NCBI GenBank assembly: GCA_041917695.1
Contig: JAYRXE010000037.1
Span: 536,173-600,172 of the forward strand
Direction: 5' to 3'
Source of the DNA: Minisyncoccota bacterium
Lineage (GTDB): Bacteria; Patescibacteriota; Minisyncoccia; UBA6257; GWB1-50-10
Length of the DNA stretch: 64,000 bases
The translations under genes were made by a program, and so were the position numbers. Under the pieces are notes generated by a model. The model saw only the letters and a program-made list of their open reading frames with translations, did not search any database and had not been told where the DNA came from. Numbering within the stretch: the first letter of the stretch is position 1; each line of letters opens with the position of its first letter. Below are positions 2,575-61,339 of this stretch, piece by piece.

Positions 2575-3552
2575 TTACTCAGAAAGGAAGCGCTCCGTGA
2601 CGGCGAAGGAGCCGATGCGGTGAATCTTCGGGCAGTCCATCTTCGCCGGCGCGCCGATCGGGAGCGTGAGCGAGGGAACGTCGTGGCCGAAATCCGCGCC
2701 GAAGAGAATCGGGAAATTATATCCGTCGGTCGCGCCCAAAACCACGTCTTCAAGCGCCAAAGGCTTATCAAGCGCGGCCCACAGGTCGTTATCACCCTCG
2801 ATCGGCTCGAGGTTCGTGATTTTCCCGACCACCATGCCTTCGATCTTCTTGAAGACTTTCGCAACGCGAAGGCGCCACAAATAATTATCTATCTCCTCGA
2901 TGGTGGCATTCACTTCTTCCCAAAAGAGTATCTTCCCGTCCCACTTCGGCTCATACGGCGTGCCAAGCAAGCTGCACAGAATATTCAGATTGCCGCCGAC
3001 GAGCTCCCCTTCCGCGCGCCCGGGCTTCAAGGCCTTCCATTCGGTGAACGCTTTGTATTTCTCCGGCACACCCTTCATAAGGGAGTCCTTCAACGACGTT
3101 GCCGTGTATTTGCCGCCCTTCGTGCGCGGCGAATCGAGCGTTTCAATCGTCGGGCCGTGGAACGTTACGAGTCCGGTCTTCTGGTTTATCGCATTCAAGA
3201 GCGTCGTGATATCGGAAAACCCGATAAACACCTTCGGGTTTTTCTTTATGAGGTCCCAATCGATGTCGGGCAGAAGCTGGAGCGATGCGTAGCCGCCCGC
3301 CGTGCAGAAGATCCCCTTCACCTCGTCGTCCGCGAACATCGCGTGGAAGTCGGAAAGGCGGTCCTCACGCGGCCCCGCCTGGTAGTTGCCATGCACCGCA
3401 AAGGCGCGGGGACCGAGCTTCGGCTTGAAACCGAGGCTCTCAAGGACTTTAATGCCGTACGAAAGGTCCTCCTTCGAAACGACGGGGCTCGAAGGCGAAA
3501 TAACGCCGATTATATCTCCTTTTTTCAGTTTTGGGGGCTTTATCGGGTCCAT
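2575..3552 (-). CDS. ldcA: LD-carboxypeptidase (peptidase S66, muramoyl-tetrapeptide carboxypeptidase)
   Basis: GDIIGVISPSSP N-terminal motif, S66 family length and layout. Confidence 0.75.
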   Translation of the reverse strand: MDPIKPPKLKKGDIIGVISPSSPVVSKEDLSYGIKVLESLGFKPKLGPRAFAVHGNYQAGPREDRLSDFHAMFADDEVKGIFCTAGGYASLQLLPDIDWDLIKKNPKVFIGFSDITTLLNAINQKTGLVTFHGPTIETLDSPRTKGGKYTATSLKDSLMKGVPEKYKAFTEWKALKPGRAEGELVGGNLNILCSLLGTPYEPKWDGKILFWEEVNATIEEIDNYLWRLRVAKVFKKIEGMVVGKITNLEPIEGDNDLWAALDKPLALEDVVLGATDGYNFPILFGADFGHDVPSLTLPIGAPAKMDCPKIHRIGSFAVTERFLSE

Positions 3553-4203: not shown

Positions 4204-4763
4204 GCGTAGGAAGGCGGCTCCTCGCGTATGCCTGAACGGAAATTCGCGTAACGGGCGAAGGCATACAAAATCGAAGACAGCCGGTTCATGAATTTCCGCG
4301 ACGATTCACTGAGCGTCGCTTCCCCTTCCTCGCACGCGTGTACTACGCGGCGCTCCGCGCGGCGCGCGATAGTGCGCGAAAAATCAAAAAAAGCGGCGAG
4401 TTCGGTTCCCCCCGAAACGAAAAAACTTGCGATGGGAGGCATTTCACGCTCCACATCGCCGATGACGTCTTCGATGTATTTCACGCGATCTGCCGATACC
4501 GATTTTTCAGCGCCTGCGAGTTCAGCCTGCACAATGAAAAGCGTGTGCTGGAGCGTTTTAACTATATCCCCCACCTTCTCCTTCCGGCTTATGATTTCCA
4601 AATTTTTTGCATACGCTTTCACCTTCAGCACGCCCAACAGTGAATTTATTTCGTCCACGGTGCCCAACGCTTCCGCACGCAGCGATTTTTTAGACTGACG
4701 CACTCCCTTCGGAGAGTCGAAAAACTTCGTTGTCCCGTCGTCGCCCTTCCCCGTGTATAACAT
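4200..4763 (-). CDS. ATP:cob(I)alamin adenosyltransferase, PduO/MMAB type
   Basis: N-terminal YTGKGDDGTT motif; convergent 4-bp overlap with preceding gene. Confidence 0.8.
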   Translation of the reverse strand: MLYTGKGDDGTTKFFDSPKGVRQSKKSLRAEALGTVDEINSLLGVLKVKAYAKNLEIISRKEKVGDIVKTLQHTLFIVQAELAGAEKSVSADRVKYIEDVIGDVEREMPPIASFFVSGGTELAAFFDFSRTIARRAERRVVHACEEGEATLSESSRKFMNRLSSILYAFARYANFRSGIREEPPSYA

Positions 4764-4880
4764 GCAGGCAATATATCACAGCCGTTTCGGCGCATCACCT
4801 ATTGACTGACATAGAAAAAAGACGGACAATAGTGAAGTTAATTAACAATATTTTTAACTTCAACCGCTGCGGAGGCGCGT

Positions 4881-5069
4881 ATGCTCTACATACAAACTGA
4901 TGGAAGCGACTTTCCGGTAGGAGGCATCCCTGAAACCGTTTTAACCCCTAAAGGAGCCGAAGAATTCGGCTTTGGAATCCCCCACGGGGGAAAAAGGACG
5001 AGGGATCTCATCAAAGAAGTTCGCTCACAAAAAGCAGGCACGGACGAAGACGAAGACGGCGATGAATGA
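4881..5069 (+). CDS. small hypothetical protein (62 aa, acidic C-terminus)
   Basis: ORF followed by a clean + strand terminator (5101-5125); no recognisable domain. Confidence 0.35.
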   Translation: MLYIQTDGSDFPVGGIPETVLTPKGAEEFGFGIPHGGKRTRDLIKEVRSQKAGTDEDEDGDE

Positions 5070-5100
5070 CGACTCAAAGGAGAGGAACAAAGACGATTTT

Positions 5101-5125
5101 ACCCGGCTATTCCAGCCGGGTTTTT
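5101..5125 (+). terminator. intrinsic terminator
   Basis: acccggc-tattcca-gccgggt followed by tttttattt. Confidence 0.55.
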
Positions 5126-5134
5126 ATTTGAGGC

Positions 5135-5590
5135 CTACCGTATCCGCTTCATCAATCCCCACGCCGCCGAAGGGAGATACAGTGCGGCGGTCTTCGTATA
5201 TTTGAAGAAGCTCTTTCCGGTTTCATACGCCTTCCGGATTTTCATAAAACGAGGTTCGAGAATCGCAATGAGTGAAAGCGTAAGACCCATGATGGCTATG
5301 TTGTCGAGGGTTGCCGCGAGCGTCCGGCCCACTACGGCGAACGAAACACCCCCGCTTTTGGGAGCGAGATAGAGCACCTGCAGAAGTGTCTCCTGGAAAA
5401 AACCGTACGCCCCGAAGAAAAACGAGGCCCACAAGAGGTACAACGCCGTCTTGGGGACGAGAAAAAGCTTCTCCTCCGCGCGGTCTGCGTCGTACTGCTT
5501 TATCCGCTCAAGCACCGCCCCGCGCATCAGCGAGAAGTCAGCCTCCGGCGCCGATTGCTCGAAGTATTTTTGTATCTTTTTTTTCATCAT
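5135..5590 (-). CDS. membrane protein immediately downstream of ECF sigma factor (putative anti-sigma factor)
   Basis: 4-bp overlap with sigma gene; cytoplasmic N-terminal segment then TM helices. Confidence 0.5.
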   Translation of the reverse strand: MMKKKIQKYFEQSAPEADFSLMRGAVLERIKQYDADRAEEKLFLVPKTALYLLWASFFFGAYGFFQETLLQVLYLAPKSGGVSFAVVGRTLAATLDNIAIMGLTLSLIAILEPRFMKIRKAYETGKSFFKYTKTAALYLPSAAWGLMKRIR

Positions 5591-6231
5591 ATGGACGTGT
5601 GCGATGTTTTGGGGTGAAGCGTTGCGATGCGGTCTGCTTCAGCCTGCTCGGCGCGTTCCAGTTCCCGCGCAAGGTATTTGCGGCCCCGGTGGAGGCGCGT
5701 CTTCACCGTGTTTTGAGAAATCCCCAAAACTTCGGCAATCTCCTCAATGCTGAACTCGTTGTAATAAAACAAGGTGATAGTCTCTTTGTAATGCAACGGC
5801 ATGTCGGCAAGCGCGCGCTGTACACTTTCGGATTCTTCCCGGCGCATAAAGGCGATTGCGGCGCTCGTATCGTCTTCGTCCGCCGCATGAAGCTCGAGGT
5901 TCGCCGCATTTCCTTCGAGCACTTCGCGGGTATACAGGCTCTTCAACTTTTTTGCGCTTGAAATCGCCACATTGTGGGCGATGGCGAAAAGCCATGAGGG
6001 GAATCGCTCCCGTTCCCGGCAGTACCGCAAATTCACATAGGCTTTATAGAAAGTGTCCTGTAAAAAGTCCTCGCAGTCCTCTTTCCGTCCGGCAATATGC
6101 CACAAATACCCAAAAACCTTCTTTGAATACCGGTCGAAAAGCACCCCGAAAAGCTCGCTATTCCCCAACAGCACGCGTTCGATAATCTCCTTATCGGAAA
6201 AAGCCGTAGTGTTATGAGAGGCGTATTTCAT
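5587..6231 (-). CDS. RNA polymerase sigma-70 factor, ECF subfamily
   Basis: Sigma-70 region 2/4 signatures (FAIAHNVAISSAKK; EIAEVLGISQNTVKTRLHRGRKYL); start placed at internal MKYASHN (ATG rc 6229-6231); longer ORF extension lacks coding features. Confidence 0.8.
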   Translation of the reverse strand: MKYASHNTTAFSDKEIIERVLLGNSELFGVLFDRYSKKVFGYLWHIAGRKEDCEDFLQDTFYKAYVNLRYCRERERFPSWLFAIAHNVAISSAKKLKSLYTREVLEGNAANLELHAADEDDTSAAIAFMRREESESVQRALADMPLHYKETITLFYYNEFSIEEIAEVLGISQNTVKTRLHRGRKYLARELERAEQAEADRIATLHPKTSHTSI

Positions 6232-6502
6232 AAAAAAGCGGAGCCCGGCATGCAGGAGCGTATACCGCACTCGCCTGCAAGCCCTTCCCTGTCTGTATAA
6301 CGTTTCTAGCGATGCCTTCGCTACGTAGACGCCTTCCCCTCCCTCAAGGTTCCCGAAGCGCCCGACGGGAACCTTCCTTTTCCTGGAGCGTCTTTCCCTA
6401 GTGAAACCCATACGCCATATGTCACGAGACAGTCCGCGCCTTCCTCCGCCTCAACTCAATAGGTAAACCAACCAAAGGGATACAAACGAAGAAATAGTGA
6501 CG

Positions 6503-6669: not shown

Positions 6670-6867
6670 ATGCGTGAATTCAAGGAAGGGAAACTAAAAA
6701 GCGGACGAAGCGGAAAAAAAGCGACCTCCCGCAAACAAGCCGTCGCTATCGCCCTTTCGGAAGCCCGCAAAAGCGGTGCAAAGGTACCCGCACCCTCCCG
6801 ACGAAAAGCGAAACGAGAGGCTCCGCGCAAAGGAAAAAAGAAGGGGCGTTCATCGAAGAAGAAATAA
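6670..6867 (+). CDS. conserved small basic protein (65 aa)
   Basis: MREFKEGKLKSGRSGKKATSRKQAVAIALSEARKSGAKV... then Lys/Arg-rich tail; resembles a widespread small-protein family (identity from memory, not checked). Confidence 0.5.
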   Translation: MREFKEGKLKSGRSGKKATSRKQAVAIALSEARKSGAKVPAPSRRKAKREAPRKGKKKGRSSKKK

Positions 6868-6873
6868 CACGCT

Positions 6874-7023
6874 ATGCTCACGACTATCGCCATCATCCTC
6901 CTTATTCTGTGGCTTTTGGGCTACATCGCATTTCCGACGCTCGGGTGGTTCATCCACATCCTGCTCGTCGCCGCGATTGTGATATTCCTCATACGCATCA
7001 TCCAGGGCCGGAATCCTGTCTAG
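6874..7023 (+). CDS. lmo0937-family small membrane protein (49 aa)
   Basis: MLTTIAIILLILWLLGYIAFPTLGWFIHILLVAAIVIFLIRIIQGRNPV; below the ORF-track size cut-off; terminator follows. Confidence 0.6.
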   Translation: MLTTIAIILLILWLLGYIAFPTLGWFIHILLVAAIVIFLIRIIQGRNPV

Positions 7024-7052
7024 ACTAAAAATGCGCAAACAGTCTCAATAAA

Positions 7053-7075
7053 AAACCGCCCACGGGCGGTTTTTG
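7053..7075. terminator. bidirectional intrinsic terminator
   Basis: aaaaaccgccc-acg-ggcggttttt. Confidence 0.6.
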
Positions 7076-7077
7076 CG

Positions 7078-7842
7078 TCACTTACGCGACGCAGAGAGTT
7101 CTCTGAATGCCGTTTCCCAATAGGCATACGCGGACTGCTGGATGCTGTTTTCAACAAGGGGAATAGGGTGCGACACCATATATTCCGTCCCCTTCTCAAC
7201 GCCAAACGTTTCGAAAATGGGGCGCACCAGCCAATATCCTCCGTCATACGCCGCCCGTTCATACTCGGCCGGGGAAAAATCATCGCGCTCCAGGTCTTCG
7301 ACAAACATTTCGATTTCAGTCTTATCGCTCATGATGCTTTTCCCGAAATATTCCCCGACGCCTTCCGCAAGCATGTCTACCAACAGTCCCGACTTGGTGT
7401 CTCCGAATTCATCCAGGGGCCATTGTCCCAATCCCATGCGCCTGCTCACCTGGTCGGCGTAGGCGTGCCCCAATTCGTGGCAGACGACAAAGCGCGCGGC
7501 AGCGAGGAGGGAGGTATCGGATTTTCCAAAAAGCGTGTCTTTCTTAAAATCGTCCGGACTTGCCTCCATTTCGGCATACCGGGGAACAAAGAAGAAACGT
7601 TCCGTACCGGGTTCATAGCAGGCTTCAAAGGTCTGTGATTCGCTCATTTGAAACGGCTCCGGCATTCCGAAGACCACCGTCGGGCTCCACCTTTTTTCGA
7701 ATGCGATGCCATGGGTCCTTTCAAGGTATTCCACGGATGCCGAAAGAAGAGCGCGAAAGCGCGTGGCGCTTTCTTCGTCTTGGGCGCGGCACGCCGTCGT
7801 TACGCTCCATAGGCAGGCGATGAAAATCACGAGATGTCTCAT
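7078..7842 (-). CDS. secreted putative zinc metallopeptidase (HEXXH)
   Basis: Signal peptide MRHLVIFIACLWSVTTACRA; VVCHELGHAY zinc-binding motif. Confidence 0.5.
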   Translation of the reverse strand: MRHLVIFIACLWSVTTACRAQDEESATRFRALLSASVEYLERTHGIAFEKRWSPTVVFGMPEPFQMSESQTFEACYEPGTERFFFVPRYAEMEASPDDFKKDTLFGKSDTSLLAAARFVVCHELGHAYADQVSRRMGLGQWPLDEFGDTKSGLLVDMLAEGVGEYFGKSIMSDKTEIEMFVEDLERDDFSPAEYERAAYDGGYWLVRPIFETFGVEKGTEYMVSHPIPLVENSIQQSAYAYWETAFRELSASRK

Positions 7843-7898
7843 GCATGCACCTCCGTTTTAAATTTATAAAATTTCCTGCCCTTATTGTAACAAAAAAA

Positions 7899-8813
7899 TC
7901 AGTCGAAAATCCCGATGCGATACGTATCTATCTCCCGCTGGTCCAGGTCGTAAAAATACTTTTTCTCCGCATGCAGTTTCGTGGCAAGCGCCACCCCGAC
8001 AAAGCGCCAATGCCACGGTTCAAACTGGTAATACGCGTTATTTTTCGGATACGAGAGCACGAATCCGTACCGATAGGCGTTTGCCGTGAGCCAGGCGTAC
8101 TCCGGCGTGTTTTCAAAGGAGACGCTGAGCGTCGGGCCTGTCCGTGTTGCCACGATATCGACGGCCGTGCCGAGCTGATGCTCGGAATACCCCTGGTCTG
8201 CCGAAAACTGGTTTGCCCCCGACCCGTATATGACACGATACCCCGTTTTTACCGCAGTCTGTTCGTCAAACGAGCGGTATGCGGAAACGACGGCAAGCGA
8301 GGACGAGGCCGCGCGGGACGCCTCGATCATGCGCGAAAGATAGGGTACGACGCGCGCATGCGCGTACATGTCCTTTCCGGCGATCGCTCCGTAACTCGGC
8401 GGCACCTGCGCAATCTCGCGCGGAACGTAATGCTCGTTCAAAAAATAAACTTTTGAATATTTTTCAAGAAGTTCCTTGTCGAGCGTTGAAAGTTTCTCGA
8501 GCGTTCCGACCGCGCTCGAAATCCCGCGGATTTGCGACTCAAACGCGTCATTTTTTGATTTTTCCTGCGTGAGCGACCGGGAAAGTCCCTCACTCTCCTC
8601 CTGGGATACAGCAAGGTCGTTTTGAAGCGATGCAATGCGTGCTTCGAATTCCGCCGTCTTCCGCGCCAATTCTTCCCGCGCTGCTCCGAGATCCGTTTCG
8701 GACCTTTCAAACTTGCCGGCTAAATCAAAGTATCGATACCCGCCGTACCCCGCAACGAAAAGCATCGCCAGGGCGATTGCGGGAAATATCATTGAAGACG
8801 TATGGATTTTCAC
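7899..8813 (-). CDS. D-alanyl-D-alanine carboxypeptidase, VanY/M15B family, with N-terminal TM and coiled coil
   Basis: VanY-type motifs SAYRSFDEQ, SEHQLGTAVD, EPWHWRF. Confidence 0.75.
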   Translation of the reverse strand: MKIHTSSMIFPAIALAMLFVAGYGGYRYFDLAGKFERSETDLGAAREELARKTAEFEARIASLQNDLAVSQEESEGLSRSLTQEKSKNDAFESQIRGISSAVGTLEKLSTLDKELLEKYSKVYFLNEHYVPREIAQVPPSYGAIAGKDMYAHARVVPYLSRMIEASRAASSSLAVVSAYRSFDEQTAVKTGYRVIYGSGANQFSADQGYSEHQLGTAVDIVATRTGPTLSVSFENTPEYAWLTANAYRYGFVLSYPKNNAYYQFEPWHWRFVGVALATKLHAEKKYFYDLDQREIDTYRIGIFD

Positions 8814-8827
8814 GGATGAGATTCCAA

Positions 8828-8904
8828 TGGGGTGGATGACGGGTCATGATCCCGCGACCTCCGCTTCCACAGAGCGGCGCTCTACCAACTGAGCTACATC
8901 CACC
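8828..8904 (-). tRNA. tRNA-His (GTG), encoded G-1 and 3' CCA
   Basis: Manual cloverleaf: extra 5' G pairs with C73; anticodon loop CUGUGGA; T-loop AUCAUGA is atypical; CCA encoded. Confidence 0.75.
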
Positions 8905-33956: not shown

Positions 33957-34859
33957 TTACTTCACAACCGTCATTTTCCTTGCTTCAACAAAATCTTTTG
34001 CTTCTAACCGGTAAAAGTAGGTTCCACTTGCCAAGTGTGAAGCATCAACGTCGGCTTCATAGCTTCCTTTTCCCATCTCTCCGTCAACGAGCGTCTGCAC
34101 TTCGCGCCCGGCGATGTCATATACCTTTAAGGATACATGGCTTCGTTCGGGAATCGTGAAGGCAATCTTCGTCTTTGGATTGAACGGATTCGGATAGTTT
34201 TGACTGAGAGAGAACTCTTTAGCCGTCTGGTTTTGATTCTGAATGCCGGTAAGGCCTCCTTCAAAATCATCTACTACTGCTTGTGGTTGCCAAAATTGGG
34301 CAAAGGTCCAATAATCCCATTTTATTTTGCAACGTATCGAATCATTGGCGGGGGTGCCATTGAAATACAAATCAAACTTTATGCGAATAGCGCTAACCAT
34401 AGCAGGAGGGTTTTGGCCACCGATTGGAATCAGTTCTACTCCCCATGTGTTGGTTATTTCGCCCACTCCAAGTTGGATTGGACCCACCTCACAAAAATTC
34501 ACTCCATCACCTGAAATATAAAATGTGGTTTTCACATATACGTTCCCAACATAGGGATCAAGTTGAACCAATTTTTCGTAGACAACGCATTGCAGGTAAC
34601 TACTTCTTGATATTGAAGTCTGAAGATCTTTAGTTACTTCAAAACTTCCCTGCTGGAATGCGCGCCCTTCAAAGCAAACGGATCTCTGGCCATAATAATG
34701 ATCAGATTCGGATGTCATTTTAATGAATCCGATGTTTCCGGTTGTTGAAGTTACATACATTCCGTTTATGCCTTCCCCTTCTACTTGCGGGTCGGCAAAC
34801 GTTTGGAACACTCCTATAAATAAGAGAGCTCCAAAAAGAAGAAAACTTAAGAATTTCAT
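33957..34859 (-). CDS. secreted protein with T9SS (Por) type-A C-terminal sorting domain
   Basis: C-terminus SQNYPNPFNPKTKIAFTIPERSHVSLKVYDIAGREVQTLVDGEMGKGSYEADVDASHLASGTYFYRLEAKDFVEARKMTVVK is a near-consensus Por_Secre_tail; signal peptide; AT-rich. Confidence 0.65.
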   Translation of the reverse strand: MKFLSFLLFGALLFIGVFQTFADPQVEGEGINGMYVTSTTGNIGFIKMTSESDHYYGQRSVCFEGRAFQQGSFEVTKDLQTSISRSSYLQCVVYEKLVQLDPYVGNVYVKTTFYISGDGVNFCEVGPIQLGVGEITNTWGVELIPIGGQNPPAMVSAIRIKFDLYFNGTPANDSIRCKIKWDYWTFAQFWQPQAVVDDFEGGLTGIQNQNQTAKEFSLSQNYPNPFNPKTKIAFTIPERSHVSLKVYDIAGREVQTLVDGEMGKGSYEADVDASHLASGTYFYRLEAKDFVEARKMTVVK

Positions 34860-35021
34860 TCGAAACTCTCCTTTCTGTATTTATTTTTTTATTAATTATT
34901 TCTATCTTTATTATACCACATCCGTATGTTTTTTGCAATACATCCGTGGCAACTTGTCAAGGGTCTCTACAGCAAAGACGCTTCTCCCCTCCTCAAAGTT
35001 TCCCTTGCTTTTGAAATCCAC

Positions 35022-35537
35022 TTAAAACCCGCGTTTTTCTCGTTTTTTCAGTATTTCCTGGGTTTTCTCCATTACCCGCTCGTACTCCTTAACAGTCGAA
35101 AGACCAGCTTGCTTCCTTCTTTTTTCTAATTCCTTCTTATTCTCCACGGGAGCTAACTCAATTTTCCCCTTCTTGTTTCTTCGAAATTGCGTGCCATAGA
35201 TTTGCTTTTTCCCCTTATGGACGCATATCCGGTCGGTAAGAAACGCCTCGTCAATTTGGTTGAATCCGCAGTGAAAGAGGCAATTTTCCTGGAGCTCGGT
35301 GTCCGTTTGATGCTGTATGAGCAGCCAGAATTGATGGAGCGCTTTCGCCCCTACCATCTTCTTTGTCGGATAGCCGTGTTTTTCAATGATGTGCCGGACC
35401 TTGAATGTATGGATGTTATCTACGGCATATATGAGCCAGTTAAGCGGTCCCTTGCCGGGAGTGGCGAGATTGCGGGTCCGTTGATCCGCTTCATACATTT
35501 CCGCTATCTCGTGCTGGATTTCTTTTTTCATTTTCAT
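35022..35537 (-). CDS. hypothetical protein
   Basis: Start at MKMKKEI (rc ATG 35535-35537) overlapping the upstream gene stop (ATGA); no recognised domain. Confidence 0.45.
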   Translation of the reverse strand: MKMKKEIQHEIAEMYEADQRTRNLATPGKGPLNWLIYAVDNIHTFKVRHIIEKHGYPTKKMVGAKALHQFWLLIQHQTDTELQENCLFHCGFNQIDEAFLTDRICVHKGKKQIYGTQFRRNKKGKIELAPVENKKELEKRRKQAGLSTVKEYERVMEKTQEILKKREKRGF

Positions 35538-36109
35538 AAAACTTTTTTGACGCCGGCAAGATAGACGGCATCCATATCGTGTTCCGCTTCCGGAATCTCG
35601 ATTGCCCGCCATCCCTTTCGCCTCCCGAGCTTTTCCGCCCGTCCTTTAAGCACGGGGTGTTCCTTACTGCCGTAGAGCAACGTCACTTTTTTTGCGAGCA
35701 AGGGCGCATAGTCAAGTTTTTTCATTTCTCGCAACTGAATTGCGGAAAAATCGGAAAGTTCTTTCTTTTTATACCAATTCAAATCTTCGCCTAAAACGGG
35801 GGGCAAGGAACAAAGTAGTACATGCGTGAAGCGAACCCTCCTTGCAGCCAGATACGCTTCAAGTGCGCCTATGGAAAATCCCATAATCGTATCACGAGGC
35901 ATTGCGCTTGAGGATACTTGATTGATGATTCCATGGATAATTTCGGATAAGGGTGCGGGCCCTCCGAGGGAATATTTTCTATTTCTTGTGAAAAGCCGGA
36001 GGGGTATATAAGTATATTTTTTTGAAATGATTGCAATAAGGTTCCGATAATTTTCATCGGTAATCCGATGGCCCCATCCAGGCAAGATATAGATGTTTGG
36101 CTTCATCAC
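35534..36109 (-). CDS. alpha/beta-hydrolase fold protein (GxSxG)
   Basis: GFSIGA nucleophile elbow; ~190 aa. Confidence 0.5.
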   Translation of the reverse strand: MMKPNIYILPGWGHRITDENYRNLIAIISKKYTYIPLRLFTRNRKYSLGGPAPLSEIIHGIINQVSSSAMPRDTIMGFSIGALEAYLAARRVRFTHVLLCSLPPVLGEDLNWYKKKELSDFSAIQLREMKKLDYAPLLAKKVTLLYGSKEHPVLKGRAEKLGRRKGWRAIEIPEAEHDMDAVYLAGVKKVL

Positions 36110-36184
36110 TAGCTAGTATTCATTATGCCCCTTTTCGAGGTTCCGGCTCAAAAAATCTAACGCCACCCTTACTACCTCAACAAG

Positions 36185-37456
36185 CTAAATTAATACTTCC
36201 CGTGCAAAAGAATTCTTTTTGACCGGACCCACCACCGCAAGATTCATATTTTTATTCGTAAAAAGAGCCTTTGCTACTGCATGAATTTCAGCGCGGGTGA
36301 CTTTTTTATATCGCTGAATTATCTCTTCAATCGGCTCAATTTTCCCCTCCATAATTTCCTGTTCTCCCGAAAAAAGAGCCCAGTCTTCCGAAGTTTCGTT
36401 TGCTATACTCTGCCTTGCAATACTATATTCCTTCGTTCTCACTAATTCCTCTGAAGAAACGCCATTCTGTACGATGTCTCGCAGTTCATTGCGGATGACT
36501 TTCAAAACTGCAGAAAATCTTTGATTTTCTATTCCTCCCGCAATCGCAAAACATCCATGATCGGACCCTAAAATAGTTGTCGCCCCTATGCTATACGCAG
36601 CCCCCATCTCCCCATAGATTTTCTGCCATAATCGGGAACTCTCGGTACCCCCCAAGATGCTTTCCAAAACACGCACGGCGGAGTGCCTCTTGTCCGAAAC
36701 GGGAAACGCTCGAAATCCAAGCACGAAATTAGTCTGATTCGATTTTTTTCGCAAAATGTTTTCCACGAATCCTTGCTGATTTTCATCAACTCTTTTTTTG
36801 GGAATGACTTCTTTCCCCTCTTTGCCGGCAAATGCCTTAACAATCTCCTTTTGAATCATCGTTTGCGAAACATTCCCAGCGATTGAAATAACGATTTGGC
36901 TAGGCAGGTAATACCGCGCATGGTACGCACGAAGGTCCGCGGCGGAAATTTTTTTGATGCTTGTCGGAGTGCCTAATATTCTTCTCCCCGCCGCTTCCTG
37001 CGGGTAAAGCGTACTGTTGAACCTATCCCAGACGACGGACTGAGGATCGTCTTCATTCATGTTAATTTCCTCAATTACCACGCCTTTTTCTTTCGCAACA
37101 TCTGCGGCGTTCAGCGATGGATTGCAAATCACATCAAAGAGAACTTTTGATGCCGACTGGAAATCCTGGTTCGCCGCTTTCACGTAATAATAGGTACACT
37201 CATTTGAAGTGAAAGCCTCTGAAGAAGTACCTAGCGACTCAAAAGCCTGAGAAATAGCTCGATGATTTGGGTACTTTTTCGTTCCTCGAAAACACATATG
37301 CTCGAGAAAATGAGAGATTCCATTTTCTTGCTCGTTTTCATATTCGCTCCCGACCCGAACGAAAACAGCCGTGGTTACGGTAGCGCTTTCCGGCAAATGC
37401 GTATGGAGGAGGGTGAGGCCGTTTTTTAGTTTTGCTTTAGTCGTTTTAGGCATCAC
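36185..37456 (-). CDS. M16 family zinc peptidase (pitrilysin-like)
   Basis: Inverted zinc motif HFLEHM and downstream Glu; 423 aa. Confidence 0.75.
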   Translation of the reverse strand: MMPKTTKAKLKNGLTLLHTHLPESATVTTAVFVRVGSEYENEQENGISHFLEHMCFRGTKKYPNHRAISQAFESLGTSSEAFTSNECTYYYVKAANQDFQSASKVLFDVICNPSLNAADVAKEKGVVIEEINMNEDDPQSVVWDRFNSTLYPQEAAGRRILGTPTSIKKISAADLRAYHARYYLPSQIVISIAGNVSQTMIQKEIVKAFAGKEGKEVIPKKRVDENQQGFVENILRKKSNQTNFVLGFRAFPVSDKRHSAVRVLESILGGTESSRLWQKIYGEMGAAYSIGATTILGSDHGCFAIAGGIENQRFSAVLKVIRNELRDIVQNGVSSEELVRTKEYSIARQSIANETSEDWALFSGEQEIMEGKIEPIEEIIQRYKKVTRAEIHAVAKALFTNKNMNLAVVGPVKKNSFAREVLI

Positions 37457-37798
37457 GCTTATCCTACTGCGAAAAATTTAGAGGTACAACACTCTTCAAT
37501 AAAAAGAGTCGCAGTTATAGCGACTCTTTGTGCATCCATACTATCTTATCTGGGTTTTGGATGCGGCTTTGGTGTCGGTTTGGGCCTTGGCCTTCCCGGC
37601 GGATGATATCTGCCCCTTGGCATACTCTATGGCTCCTTTCTGCTTATTTATATTTATTAGCTCTCTACTGAGAGAAGATACTCAAGCAGGTACCTTTTTA
37701 ATTTCAAACCTAAACTCTCATTAAACTATAGCTCAAAGAATTAAAATGGCAATACCCTGGCGTACATTTGTCAAGATTCCTTATAGTTAAAGGCCACG

Positions 37799-37824
37799 AA
37801 AAACCCGCCGAATGGCGGGTTTTC
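37799..37824 (-). terminator. intrinsic terminator
   Basis: aaaacccgcc-gaat-ggcgggtttt. Confidence 0.6.
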
Positions 37825-37838
37825 TTGGGGTAAAGGAC

Positions 37839-39260
37839 TTATCGGCAATACCCGGCAATGTCCGTCCCTAAACAAATCGTGCACCCGAGCGCCGTCCAAC
37901 CATTGGTAACACCTGAAGGAACTTCATCAGGAACACCCACCCCTCCTGAAATGCTTCGCGGATCGCAGGTGGGAACCGAGTAGGCTACATGGCTACACGA
38001 GTTATTGGCATCAAATATAGCGCCCGATGTGCAGGTATAGGTTGGCTCAAAATCACTGCCAACGCCGCCTTCAGCTACCCCAAAAACTTCAGTGGTTTGT
38101 ATCTGACCGTTACCAGCGTCATATGATGCCCAACCCCCTTCGTTCATTCTATCGCAGTTATAATCAAAATCTTTTTCCGCGATGGGATTTATGAAATAGC
38201 TTGTCTGCCCGGGAAAGGCATTCGCATTATCGTCATGGCAATCAAGTCCCCCGTTCGGCAGCTCGCCAATATTCGGGTTCCACGGCCGCGAAGGCGAATC
38301 CTTCACGCGTACCTCAGGGGTGCACTGGTCGAGACATTCGTAGTGCATCGTACCAAGGTCGTCCGTAAACGTATCACTGTCGACGTCGTTGTACCACAAG
38401 AGCGCTTCCTTTATCTTTGCCGTCGAGCCGGTTTGGAGCGTTATCGCCCCGCTACTGATACGCAATGAGGCGTTATGGTCGGCATCGCCATTCCAAACAA
38501 GTGTTGAATTACCCGTAAGGTTGACGGTATTGTCTCCGAGCAACAAATCGCCGCCGTCAAAGCCCTCAACGCCCGTCGTCGGAGAACACGAACCCTGCAA
38601 ATTGCCATTCGCGTCGAAGACGCATTCAGGATCGGACCACGCGAGGGTGAGTGTGGCGGTATCGCCGTTAATGTCTTCCGCGACGAATTTCGTGTGATAG
38701 GTCTTCGTATGCGTGTCGTTCACGACCCATGCTCCTTCATATGAATACTCCATGAGCGCCTGCGCCTCGGCTTTCGAGACAAGCTGGTTCAAGACGCTTT
38801 CGGCGTAACCGTTTCCTTTATTGATGATAAGCGTGCCTTCATCGCTCACGAGATACGGCTGTGAACGGAAGTAATCCGCGGAAAGCGCTTTCGATTCTTT
38901 CATCGTAAGCGGAATCTCCTGCGTCTTTGAATCGGTGTCGATGACCGCCTTCACGCTTTTAAGCGCTACGGGACTCGCGATGCGCACCTGCATGAGCTGG
39001 GTATCGCCAACGCGCACCTTCAAGGGGCTCACGACGCCGCCCGTGAACTTCGGGTATTCCCCGGAGCTCGCGGTGAAGCGGTATTCGCCGTCGGTCGGCA
39101 ACTGCCACTCCTGCCCCCGGGCGTTTACGTAATACTCGCCGAGCTTGTTCGACGCATTGGGAACGAGGCCGTTCCAGAAATAATATCCGGCGACCAGAAG
39201 AAACGCGATGCCGACGACAACTGCGATCGTCGACTTCTCTTTTTGGGTAAAGTTTTTCAT
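37839..39260 (-). CDS. membrane-anchored extracellular Cys-rich protein (473 aa)
   Basis: N-terminal TM anchor; about 20 Cys in the C-terminal half; no known motif. Confidence 0.5.
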   Translation of the reverse strand: MKNFTQKEKSTIAVVVGIAFLLVAGYYFWNGLVPNASNKLGEYYVNARGQEWQLPTDGEYRFTASSGEYPKFTGGVVSPLKVRVGDTQLMQVRIASPVALKSVKAVIDTDSKTQEIPLTMKESKALSADYFRSQPYLVSDEGTLIINKGNGYAESVLNQLVSKAEAQALMEYSYEGAWVVNDTHTKTYHTKFVAEDINGDTATLTLAWSDPECVFDANGNLQGSCSPTTGVEGFDGGDLLLGDNTVNLTGNSTLVWNGDADHNASLRISSGAITLQTGSTAKIKEALLWYNDVDSDTFTDDLGTMHYECLDQCTPEVRVKDSPSRPWNPNIGELPNGGLDCHDDNANAFPGQTSYFINPIAEKDFDYNCDRMNEGGWASYDAGNGQIQTTEVFGVAEGGVGSDFEPTYTCTSGAIFDANNSCSHVAYSVPTCDPRSISGGVGVPDEVPSGVTNGWTALGCTICLGTDIAGYCR

Positions 39261-50454: not shown

Positions 50455-50617
50455 GGTAGCTCCACGGGGAATCTCACGCGCTTCGCTTTCTGAAACCCGA
50501 CGGTTTCAGTACTTCCGTCTTGGGGAAACATCCGTTTCCCCATCGCCCCTTTAGGTTCAATTCCCGAAAGACCCAAAAACCAAATGGCCGCATTATGCGG
50601 CCATGTGGGGTTTCTTG
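50455..50617 (-). repeat. tRNA-Glu-associated hairpin element ending in an 18-nt (up to 23-nt with one indel) copy of the tRNA-Glu 3' end
   Basis: Direct repeat gtagctccacggggaatc at 50457-50474 and 50617-50634; perfect hairpins 50490-50509 (CUGAAACC/GGUUUCAG) and 50522-50541 (GGGGAAAC/GUUUCCCC); terminator hairpin 50584-50604; no 5' acceptor partner, so not a complete tRNA. Confidence 0.5.
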
Positions 50618-50689
50618 TAGCTCCACGGGGAATCGAACCCCGATTTCCGCCGTGAAAGGGCGGCGTCCTAGCCGTTAGACGATGAAGCC
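50618..50689 (-). tRNA. tRNA-Glu (TTC)
   Basis: D-arm UCGUCUAACGGCUAGGAC, anticodon loop CUUUCAC, T-arm CGGGG-UUCGAUU-CCCCG; acceptor has two G-U pairs. Confidence 0.75.
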
Positions 50690-58537: not shown

Positions 58538-58934
58538 AACGTTACGTATTAGTAGATAAACGACTTTACTCCAAGTATAGAAAAGTGGAATTATATGTCA
58601 AGCGGGTTCGAGTCTTTCACTTATTCATAATTGATAATCCAGCAAATTTATATAGAAACAGAGCATATTGCCTTTTATTATGACAAGCGGAAATATACAT
58701 TTTTACAGTGTTATCCAAAATGTCCTTTATCTAAGCTATATTTTCTCCTTTTTTTACAAGTCAAAATGGAGTTTGAAAATATTCATAAAATTTCCACTGC
58801 ATATAGAGGCCCTATACTAGGTTTTGATAAATGAGTCCTAATTAAGCACCGACGTGAAAGACGTGCATTCTTCGAACATATATCGTCGGCTCGACCAAAG
58901 GAAGACCCAAGACTGAGCCTCGGGCCTTCCGATA

Positions 58935-59129
58935 AGAAAAATTCGTGCGGAGGCGGAAGGCAAGACGAGATTCGAACGCGCTCACTGCCGTTCGCTTTTG
59001 AAAACCCTCGGTTTTCAATACTTTCCTACACAGGGAACCGGGCGCGGTTCCCTGACACCTTCCACTGTTCGAATCCTCTGAACTGACACGGAATACAAAT
59101 ACCGGCATAAAGCCGGTATTTTTATTCAG
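58935..59129 (-). repeat. tRNA-Ser-associated hairpin element ending in a copy of the tRNA-Ser 3' end
   Basis: Direct repeat gcggaggcggaagg at 58937-58950 and 59129-59142, plus attcgaac in both; perfect hairpins 59021-59044 (10 bp) and 58988-59008 (8 bp); conserved spacers GGAAAGUA and AAGCGAA shared with the Glu-associated element; terminator hairpin 59101-59120. Confidence 0.5.
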
Positions 59130-59216
59130 CGGAGGCGGAAGGATTCGAACCTTCGGTCCGGTTCCCCGGACAACTTCTTAGCAGGAAGTTGCTTTCGACC
59201 GCTCAGCCACGCCTCC
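59130..59216 (-). tRNA. tRNA-Ser (GCT), long variable arm
   Basis: Acceptor GGAGGCG/CGCCUCC, anticodon loop CUGCUAA, variable arm UGUCCGGGGAACCGGACC, T-loop UUCGAAU. Confidence 0.8.
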
Positions 59217-59348
59217 GTTATCTTTAAACGTGGAAGAAAACGTTTCCTAACACGCACGAATAATCTTCGCTAATTTTCACTTCAAAATCAAATTTCCTTG
59301 AATTCATGCGGTTTTACTGGTATTGTAGGAAGGCTCTATTTAACTCTC

Positions 59349-60770
<1,422 letters not shown>

Positions 60771-61118: not shown

Positions 61119-61199
61119 GCCAAGTGGCGCCTGCCTGCGCAGGCAGGAAGTGGTAACGCAGCAGTCTGTCTCTCGGCGGGAAATTTAAGAAATAAATAT
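61119..61199 (+). pseudogene. tRNA-Cys 5'-half pseudo-copy with a palindromic 18-nt insertion
   Basis: GCCAAGUGGCG[CCUGCCUGCGCAGGCAGG]AAGUGGUAACGCAGCAGUCUG... parallels tRNA-Cys GGCCAGGUGGCGAAGUGGUAACGCAGCGGUCUG; no intact anticodon or T arm. Confidence 0.45.
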
Positions 61200-61271
61200 G
61201 GCCAGGTGGCGAAGTGGTAACGCAGCGGTCTGCAAAACCGCCATGCGCGGGTTCAATTCCCGCCCTGGCCT
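61200..61271 (+). tRNA. tRNA-Cys (GCA)
   Basis: Acceptor GGCCAGG/CCUGGCC, anticodon loop CUGCAAA, T-arm GCGGG-UUCAAUU-CCCGC, discriminator U. Confidence 0.8.
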
Positions 61272-61339
61272 CAAGAAAAAATCATCGAGAAACTTCTCGG
61301 TGATTTTTTATAGTTCCTGCAAGCGATAAAAAAACCGCT

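Follow-up and report, generated by a model that had tools for sequence, protein, structure and literature searches.

The segment downstream of the tRNA-Ser(GCT) gene in the window, i.e., in the whole stretch of 64,000 nt analysed here, belongs to a widespread family of non-coding elements in Patescibacteria (CPR bacteria), of which it is a genuine, diverged member. The elements comprise about 100-200 bp, and the family is apparently undescribed so far. On balance, we lean towards reading it as a non-autonomous insertion element with a structured core, probably an RNA, that recombines within conserved gene ends and restores them, with the Ser locus as an old and diverged copy.

Anatomy of the Ser and Glu elements

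The tRNA-Ser(GCT) gene is intact and encoded on the minus strand (59129-59216; called by ARAGORN and matched by the Rfam tRNA model with 59.6 bits), on which all features of the window elements given below are located. A direct repeat search identifies its last 14 nt, CCTTCCGCCTCCGC (59129-59142), as copy 1 of a repeat whose copy 2 (58947-58960) is identical in 14/14 positions. Copy 2 comprises the 3' T-stem strand, the 3' acceptor-stem strand and the discriminator base of tRNA-Ser. That is, the identity of the two copies ends exactly where the tRNA ends, and the element spans 182 bp from copy to copy. A reading of the window from its letters and open reading frames only (referred to as the sequence-only reading) had already reported a duplication of the tRNA end with the partner at 59129-59142, but placed the second copy at 58937-58950, i.e., 10 nt off.

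Immediately 3' of the tRNA lies a terminator-like hairpin (59091-59127), an inverted repeat of 16 nt with 94% complementarity, whose arms (59091-59106 and 59112-59127) are present as that reading had described them. This hairpin constitutes the variable spacer of the element and shows no relation to the hairpin after copy 2, which was read from the sequence as GGAAGGCCC...GGGTCTTCC followed by TTTGG (58899-58930). The latter is probably the original tRNA-Ser terminator, displaced downstream of copy 2. Neither of the two hairpins is called by a simple consensus terminator scan. The spacer is followed by the 5' arm AGGATTCGAAC (59067-59077), found as an inverted repeat of 11 nt with 100% identity, which repeats the tRNA-Ser T-loop and the beginning of the 3' T-stem strand in inverted orientation without a mismatch. 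The inverted T-loop-like motif noticed earlier hence corresponds to the perfect 11-nt copy GTTCGAATCCT relating 59067-59077 to 59140-59150.

The conserved core (58994-59065) was located by a covariance model match of 47.5 bits (E 3.1e-13) and shows the order purine-rich 5' junction, hairpin 1, junction UGUAGGAAAGUA, hairpin 2 and AAAGC. Inverted repeat analysis recovers hairpin 1 at 59031-59054 as the perfect 10-bp helix CAGGGAACCG/CGGTTCCCTG that had been proposed. Hairpin 2 (TTGAAAACC/GGTTTTCAA, 58998-59018) is perfect as well, but its helix has 9 bp and a GAG loop instead of the 8 bp given before, and AAGCGAAC, also claimed for the element, is present on the minus strand. On this strand, AAAGCGAAC stands 3' of hairpin 2 and before a direct copy of the T-loop. 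Direct repeat and alignment data assign 58961-58993 to the 3' junction and degenerate target copy GAACGGCAGTGAGCGCGTTCGAATCTCGTCTTG, i.e., a variable third-hairpin region and the direct T-loop copy GTTCGAATC (9 nt, 58969-58977; a direct repeat), followed by an insertion of 9 nt. In the predicted fold, this region falls within the closing stem. There is no ORF inside the element; an 88-aa ORF that overlaps it (58842-59108) was rejected as non-coding, given the family-wide indels and variable hairpins.

A sister element is found at tRNA-Glu(TTC) (tRNA call at 50617-50689). Here, the repeat search yields copies of 18 nt, namely copy 1 at 50617-50634 and copy 2 of the tRNA-Glu 3' end, GATTCCCCGTGGAGCTAC, at 50456-50473, which is preceded by the family's 3' junction GCGCGTGA. 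The 5' arm GGGAATTGAACC (12 nt, 50554-50565) is an inverted T-loop copy with one mismatch according to sequence and strain comparison; in contig L128, from a strain 98.5% identical to the window, the respective arm (GGGAATCGAACC) is a perfect T-loop complement. The core (50485-50553) is matched with 56 bits (E 6.5e-16). The order of parts matches the Ser locus. In the window, the terminator behind copy 1 has no relation to the one behind copy 2. The shared architecture claimed by the sequence-only reading thus extends to homology, as alignment and covariance model both show; the pairwise alignment it had proposed gives the common blocks GGAARTAYTGAAAMC, GGTTTYMRAAAGCGAA and GCGCGT.

To put both loci into the context of the window, we scanned its 64 kb on both strands with the covariance model (R1), which was built from 53 metagenome core sequences, none of them from the window. 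Only the two sites are found, and the next score (14 bits) belongs to the opposite strand of the same hairpin. Both elements show the core features of the family (purine junction, hairpin 1, UGGNGGAAG, hairpin 2) as well as its arm features, i.e., an 11-nt perfect arm and a 14-nt copy for Ser and, for Glu, an arm of 12 nt with a single mismatch together with a copy of 18 nt. Other tRNA loci, which the earlier reading had suggested to inspect, were screened for a copy of their own 3' end of at least 14 nt within 600 nt downstream. Only tRNA-Ser and tRNA-Glu show one among the 12 tRNAs of the window. Weak pattern matches at 12.4, 13.8 and 35.0 kb lie inside coding sequence and were discarded as chance.

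The element family and its targets

Strict patterns derived from the two window copies gave one true match and one chance match in 185,579 genomes (one per species) and no match in viral contigs or metagenomes. The window copies are atypical for the family, which was revealed by a pattern based on two other genomes, L002 and L006. In the former (contig CAZWRY010000006.1, 38% GC), a third copy lies behind tRNA-Lys with a 42-nt repeat that includes the terminator. The contig is labelled 'Bdellovibrionales', but we consider it CPR because its DnaJ is closest to Moranbacteria/Parcubacteria proteins. The window is assigned to Patescibacteria by the relatives of its short IF-2. The relative L006 carries elements behind tRNA-Ala and tRNA-Leu and a variant behind tRNA-Glu. 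In total, at least 120 CPR-type metagenome loci match the pattern GGGGTCGGGARAAC...TCCCGTGG.

Read along the core strand, the intact gene end (X-Y) is followed by a spacer of about 20-90 nt, which is not conserved between elements, often contains a terminator and presumably supplies the promoter at 5'-end targets. Next are an arm of 9-17 nt complementary to X-Y, the junction G-R-A-A-A GGGGU and hairpin 1, then UGG-N-GGAAG and hairpin 2, sometimes with an extra hairpin before the latter. RGAG, an optional hairpin 3 (often GCGAAGC), a degenerate X and an exact Y complete the order. The conserved core is about 70-100 nt long and contains two or three hairpins, among them optional ones of variable length. 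Degenerate X commonly reads GTGAGAT where the gene has GTTCGAT, i.e., the mismatches of copy 2 are located next to the core.

Among the matches listed, 56 distinct elements show an exact repeat of 12-56 nt. The spacing of the repeat copies is 115-215 nt for 54/56 elements, and the two remaining elements have 274 and 333 nt. The 5' arm is specific for its target: the median score of cognate arms is 10.5, whereas shuffled arms (1120 shuffles) average 4.5 and reach 10 at most. For 47/56 elements, the better match of the arm is with the intact gene and not with copy 2.

With regard to targets, a tRNA or tmRNA is called at most 160 nt upstream for 67/124 core copies among the matches listed, which cover 18 amino-acid specificities and tmRNA. 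At least seven protein genes serve as targets too. These are hit either at the 3' end, i.e., rpsI (L025, L115) and rpmG (L119), or at the 5' end with the core on the opposite strand, i.e., a typA-like GTPase (L010), fusA (L027), dnaB (L100), rnhA (L107) and one further gene (L030). Each protein-gene locus shows a duplication of the respective gene end, and the element is located outside the intact gene in every case among the matches listed. At locus L122, tRNA-Glu is followed by an element with a tRNA-Gly-type 3' arm, possibly a result of recombination between cores. Four core copies without arms (L018, L039, L044, L109) are found directly 5' of whole tRNAs and end at the +1 position, such that RNase P would set their 3' end.

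The sequence-only reading had favoured a mobile or templated process over coincidence. The family supports this, as it occurs at many genes with each copy carrying the end of its own neighbour, and the Ser site is empty in relatives. Namely, the element is absent after the near-identical orthologous tRNA-Ser(GCT) genes of L005 and L006, which speaks against an ordinary trailer conserved across the lineage, the alternative considered by that reading. L006 carries elements at tRNA-Glu, tRNA-Ala and tRNA-Leu while missing one at tRNA-Ser(GCT). Cores of about 80% identity occur in hosts of 38% GC (the Moranbacteria-like contig L002) and 53% GC (the window). In L030, the first 17 codons are present twice, and one version deviates from the other by one codon and by synonymous changes at five third positions. 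These mostly synonymous differences show that the copies diverged under coding selection in different lineages rather than by decay of a local duplication.

The repeat includes the terminator in L002 (42 nt) and L095 (56 nt), i.e., the terminators after both copies are identical, and a repeat of 43 nt is found in L010. Larger arrangements exist as well: in L062, a version of 1.78 kb, the tRNA is separated from arm and core by three cargo genes (Ham1-like, phosphoribosyltransferase, GrpB), among which Pfam finds no recombinase, and L110 shows a tandem array in which a core of a second, different type occurs as well. Presence/absence polymorphism, which the earlier reading had proposed to look for, is not seen for the same-species contigs L128 (98.5% identical) and L129 (100%), both of which are occupied; the comparison showed neither an excised form nor an empty site in a near-identical genome. 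A further contig, L003, breaks off 17 nt short of the tRNA. Where one genome has several copies (L006), these are mosaic instead of near-identical.

Predicted fold of the core and database searches

In the predicted folds, pairing of the two arms encloses the core as a three- or four-way junction with a single-stranded tail of 6-9 nt. A closing stem formed by the two arms is predicted for 8/9 full elements folded, including those at rnhA, rpsI and fusA. Fold z-scores range from -2.4 to -8.4 for eight elements, and the ninth (L045) reaches -0.83. The Ser element shows the same arm-closed shape with a z-score of -2.8. The Glu element folded alone yields -1.6, which is not significantly better than shuffles. 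The fold is kept in the strain that is 98.5% identical to the window.

Hairpin 2 covaries, with compensatory changes at 8/8 pairs and 94% of cells paired, and its score is reached by 0/500 shuffles. Such compensatory changes in the alignment indicate long-term selection on the fold. Furthermore, the junction position N of GUGG-N-GGAA and position 4 of the tetraloop on hairpin 2 change together (C-G 30, U-A 10, A-U 3, exceptions 5), and the switches happen within single stem types. The pattern has the appearance of a tertiary pair, which would be RNA-like. Strand preferences are visible too: GNRA loops cap hairpin 1 in 49/109 copies on the core strand vs. 1/109 on the other strand, and GCGAAGC occurs 20 vs. 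0 times. GCGAAGC is also known as a very stable DNA mini-hairpin. The numbers of G-U and A-C mismatches (13 vs. 35), taken as an indicator of the folded strand, are confounded by a bulged-A subfamily. Scans for sigma-70 promoters predict none for the window elements. Taken together, we consider a folded RNA of the tRNA-sense strand more likely for the core than a folded single-stranded DNA.

Searches against Rfam 15, which covers, e.g., group I/II introns, self-cleaving ribozymes, tmRNA and omega RNAs, left the core unmatched for the window and 12 canonical loci at gathering as well as permissive thresholds (E up to 1 or 10). Likewise, collections of phages, plasmids and viruses hold no match to the element, and a literature search by sequence string and topic found no description of it. 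Within 5 kb of the elements among the matches listed (at least 120 loci), no protein family is shared except target genes and syntenic neighbours, and neither a recombinase nor a reverse transcriptase nor a nuclease (including TnpB/IscB-type) is linked to the element. For the neighbours in the window, Pfam reports no recombinase and no adjacent reverse transcriptase; a crude motif scan of the window for tyrosine recombinases and reverse transcriptases gave nothing credible.

Several known elements were considered and set aside. The published group I intron of Patescibacteria relates to the anticodon loop and has no connection to the element. Hammerhead, HDV-like and twister ribozymes, retrons, diversity-generating retroelements, split/permuted tRNAs and box C/D RNAs were checked by eye, where the conserved junctions misfit, and gave no Rfam match. 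The repeat pair of a diversity-generating retroelement was rejected, since there is no adjacent reverse transcriptase and the repeats are exact or show TC to GA changes in the T-loop, i.e., changes that are not adenine-specific.

Mechanism, rival explanations and known systems

Given one core, dozens of unrelated targets and no travelling protein, the choice of the target would come from the element's own arms, via base pairing or homology, and an enzyme would act in trans by recognizing the folded core. Entry would take place by a crossover inside the stretch of 12-56 nt common to the element and a conserved gene end. The gene would stay whole, now ending in element-borne sequence, and its displaced original end would be stranded behind the core. 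Against this reading, which we favour, stand the missing link to a recombinase, reverse transcriptase or nuclease and the missing empty site in a near-identical genome. Furthermore, a crossover inside Y alone leaves the origin of a new target-specific inverted arm unexplained and fails to account for L122, and the frequent GTGAGAT as degenerate X is unaccounted for by the proposed crossover. Mosaic copies and a selected fold suit a host-useful RNA gene as well as a parasite. The four arm-less copies in front of whole tRNAs speak against the favoured reading as well. A more far-reaching version, which we consider doubtful, takes the core as scaffold of an insertion system of CPR bacteria themselves that is guided by RNA and programmable: the arms would read both strands of a chosen gene end, and a recombinase or reverse transcriptase acting in trans would place the element, sometimes with cargo, behind the gene and restore it. 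In this case, the element would act as an 'address label' free of protein, for which a change of the arms alone would suffice to select another target.

If the favoured reading is true, CPR bacteria carry many tiny elements whose target is written in the flanking arms and not read by a dedicated site-specific protein. For organisms with minimal genomes, this would be a new path of horizontal spread, and it would be a source of rearrangements and assembly breaks at tRNA genes. The core would represent a new class of structured RNA, and the element might serve as a compact programmable insertion tool. On a conservative reading, the family still bears on annotation: incomplete tRNA copies in CPR genomes, as well as 'orphan' N-termini of genes, could be explained, and tRNA-adjacent duplications need not mean prophages.

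Among the rival explanations, we tentatively keep as a possible one that the core is a functional structured small RNA (guide-type or ribozyme) from tRNA transcription units, whose arms close the fold or pair with DNA or transcript of the neighbouring gene, mobility being secondary. In the extreme, the two arms would guide a trans-acting enzyme to both target strands in a bridge-RNA-like manner. Covariation of hairpin 2 and of N with the tetraloop base fits a small RNA, and so do the strand-biased GNRA loops, the optional hairpins of variable length, the fold retained in the 98.5% identical strain and the four arm-less copies ending at +1 of a whole tRNA. But no promoter is predicted for the window copies, a terminator separates the tRNA from the core, and no partner protein was found near the element. 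Moreover, each arm has the other as its pairing partner in the predicted folds and would hence not be free as a guide, and a mere RNA gene leaves unexplained why gene ends are duplicated exactly, species-specific terminators included. Another rival is a MITE- or SINE-like element that would insert behind gene ends by staggered cuts or target-primed copying with a transposase or reverse transcriptase in trans, such that the repeat would be a target-site duplication. The youngest-looking copies (L002, L095, L010) indeed show an exact repeat up to the insertion point including the terminator, repeat length varies as in target-primed retroposition, and reverse transcriptases of diversity-generating retroelements exist in relatives (L005). 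We nevertheless judge this unlikely: the spacer between copy 1 and arm lacks the conservation expected for the 5' end of a transposed unit, the gene-end copies of L030 differ at synonymous sites, identity at the window loci ends with the tRNA and is followed by two unrelated terminators, and neither fixed terminal inverted repeats nor a fixed repeat length are observed.

Partial duplication of a tRNA or tmRNA 3' end from the T-loop onwards is the classical signature of integrase-mediated islands. The elements could thus be attL/attR scars of integrase-carrying islands or prophages that once resided in tRNA genes and were deleted later, an explanation that shares the target spectrum of tRNA, tmRNA and conserved gene ends. 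It is very unlikely, however, given more than 50 elements of one narrow size range with one conserved core, the occurrence of this core at dozens of different targets, and the lack of integrase fragments nearby and of phage, plasmid or viral matches; nor is there a full-length integrase island with the core among the matches listed (at least 120 loci). An ordinary tRNA trailer or terminator with a chance likeness of two loci has a negligible probability. Its one point of support is the z-score of -1.6 of the Glu element alone. This reading is refuted by the scores of model R1 (E-values from 1e-13 down to 1e-16 and no further site in the 64 kb), the absence at orthologous tRNA-Ser genes in relatives and the copies of the same core at the ends of protein genes.

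Given that nothing in Rfam 15, in the phage, plasmid and viral collections or in the papers searched matches, we regard the family as an element of a new kind, whose mechanism is inferred. Like integrase islands and CIMEs, it has an insert flanked by direct repeats of the 3' gene end starting in the T-loop, would restore the gene by sequence of its own, targets tRNA, tmRNA and conserved gene ends, and occurs as tandem array (L110) and cargo-only version (L062). Unlike these, the element has 115-215 bp instead of kilobases, no integrase within or nearby, and an inverted target copy across the core; one core serves 18 tRNA specificities, tmRNA and at least seven protein genes, whereas islands have one att core per family.

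The attP(+) of CTX phage and attC of integrons are folded single-strand attachment sites. Similar to them, the inverted arms of the element, about 70-100 nt apart, pair in predicted folds into a mismatched stem mimicking a duplex target. The integrated layout (hybrid site, element, inverted arm, loop, hybrid site) is alike too, and cassette-like cargo and arrays recall integrons. In contrast to the fixed dif or attI partner, the stem of the element differs with every target, its 'loop' is a conserved, covarying multi-hairpin core, and no link to Xer or IntI was found. AAC/GTT, as in the conserved RYYYAAC/GTTRRRY boxes of attC, is present only where the T-loop supplies it and is missing at the non-tRNA targets L010, L027, L030, L100 and L107.

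With bridge or seek RNAs of IS110/IS1111, the element shares a structured non-coding module with short target copies in both orientations, such that the target is possibly programmable by base pairing. It differs by its far smaller size, the lack of an adjacent DEDD recombinase and of sequence or Rfam similarity, and the duplication of 12-56 nt of the target. Bridge RNAs have two internal loops with unpaired target and donor guides; the folds predicted for the element pair its two arms with each other. MITEs and tRNA-derived SINEs are likewise small, non-coding and non-autonomous, with several copies per genome and inverted repeats plus flanking direct repeats. The inverted repeats of the element, in contrast, are copied from the target and not fixed, its direct repeat of 12-56 nt always covers the gene end, and its sites are the ends of conserved genes rather than arbitrary positions.

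A cargo-bearing element and alternative cores

A version of the element at L062 measures 1.78 kb (4383-6280; L-numbers denote contig loci from other genomes or metagenomes). In it, three cargo genes (Ham1-like, phosphoribosyltransferase and GrpB) are flanked on both sides by a repeat that comprises the tRNA together with 40 nt of adjoining sequence. Behind the cargo genes follow, in this order, the arm, the core and copy 2 of the gene end. A recombinase is absent from the enlarged element.

The flanking-arm logic is also used by other core types. In L110 (~286-710), a tandem array behind tRNA-Arg(CCT) combines a core of the R1 type, i.e., the type described by our covariance model of metagenome copies from outside the window, with a subsequent different core, such that the tRNA end is present in three copies. 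A rearranged variant is found at tRNA-Glu of L006 (10378-10540), a relative without an element at the orthologous tRNA-Ser; its hairpin 2 is identical to that of the window's Ser element.

At L122 (341-520), the element located behind tRNA-Glu has a 3' arm that corresponds to the 3' end of a tRNA-Gly and that L023 carries in identical form. Such an arrangement points to recombination among elements or else to a switch of target.

Cores without arms and inserted palindromes

Four loci carry cores that lack both arms and repeats and are placed immediately 5' of whole tRNAs, namely L018 (277-360), L039 (4337-4420), L044 (982-1066) and L109 (minus strand). Their settings are an Ile-Ala spacer, Met and Arg leaders and a Tyr-Thr spacer, and the distance from the first G of the core to the tRNA start is 78-79 nt.

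The hairpin regions of some cores (L008, L014, L020, L066, L074 and L116) contain insertions of short, GC-rich palindromes that follow the pattern CCTGCC...GGCAGG. Such palindromes are also inserted elsewhere, with 10/129 loci affected overall. They may represent a separate tiny repeat family of these genomes.

Several metagenome contigs (L003, L024, L012, L059 and L088) terminate at or inside elements or at the neighbouring tRNA, e.g., position 1 of L003 corresponds to window position 59233, 17 nt before tRNA-Ser. The repeats may break assemblies.

tRNA-Cys and neighbouring genes

The 5' half of tRNA-Cys (window 61200-61272) is partly copied upstream in direct orientation, between rbfA and the tRNA (61119-61175, plus strand). 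Both share an exact 16-nt match (GAAGTGGTAACGCAGC), and the partial copy is split by a perfect 18-nt palindrome (CCTGCCTGCGCAGGCAGG); the R1 core is absent from this region. Relative L005, which lacks the Ser element, shows no such duplication, and its tRNA-Cys overlaps the end of rbfA. There, a diversity-generating retroelement (RVT_1 reverse transcriptase and bAvd; 6844-8881) adjoins rbfA and tRNA-Cys.

Next to the window's tRNA-Ser, in divergent orientation, lies the IF-2 gene (59349-60770, plus strand), which encodes 473 aa only and begins at the G domain, as is typical among the CPR relatives found. The GC content drops to 0.44 within window 34001-38000, compared to ~0.53 elsewhere, and this region could be a foreign island. 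Finally, in L002 an ORF for DnaJ (2628-3548), located upstream of the element at tRNA-Lys, spans 306 aa versus ~365-375 aa in homologues, with which its final ~14% fails to align. Its 3' end may be altered.
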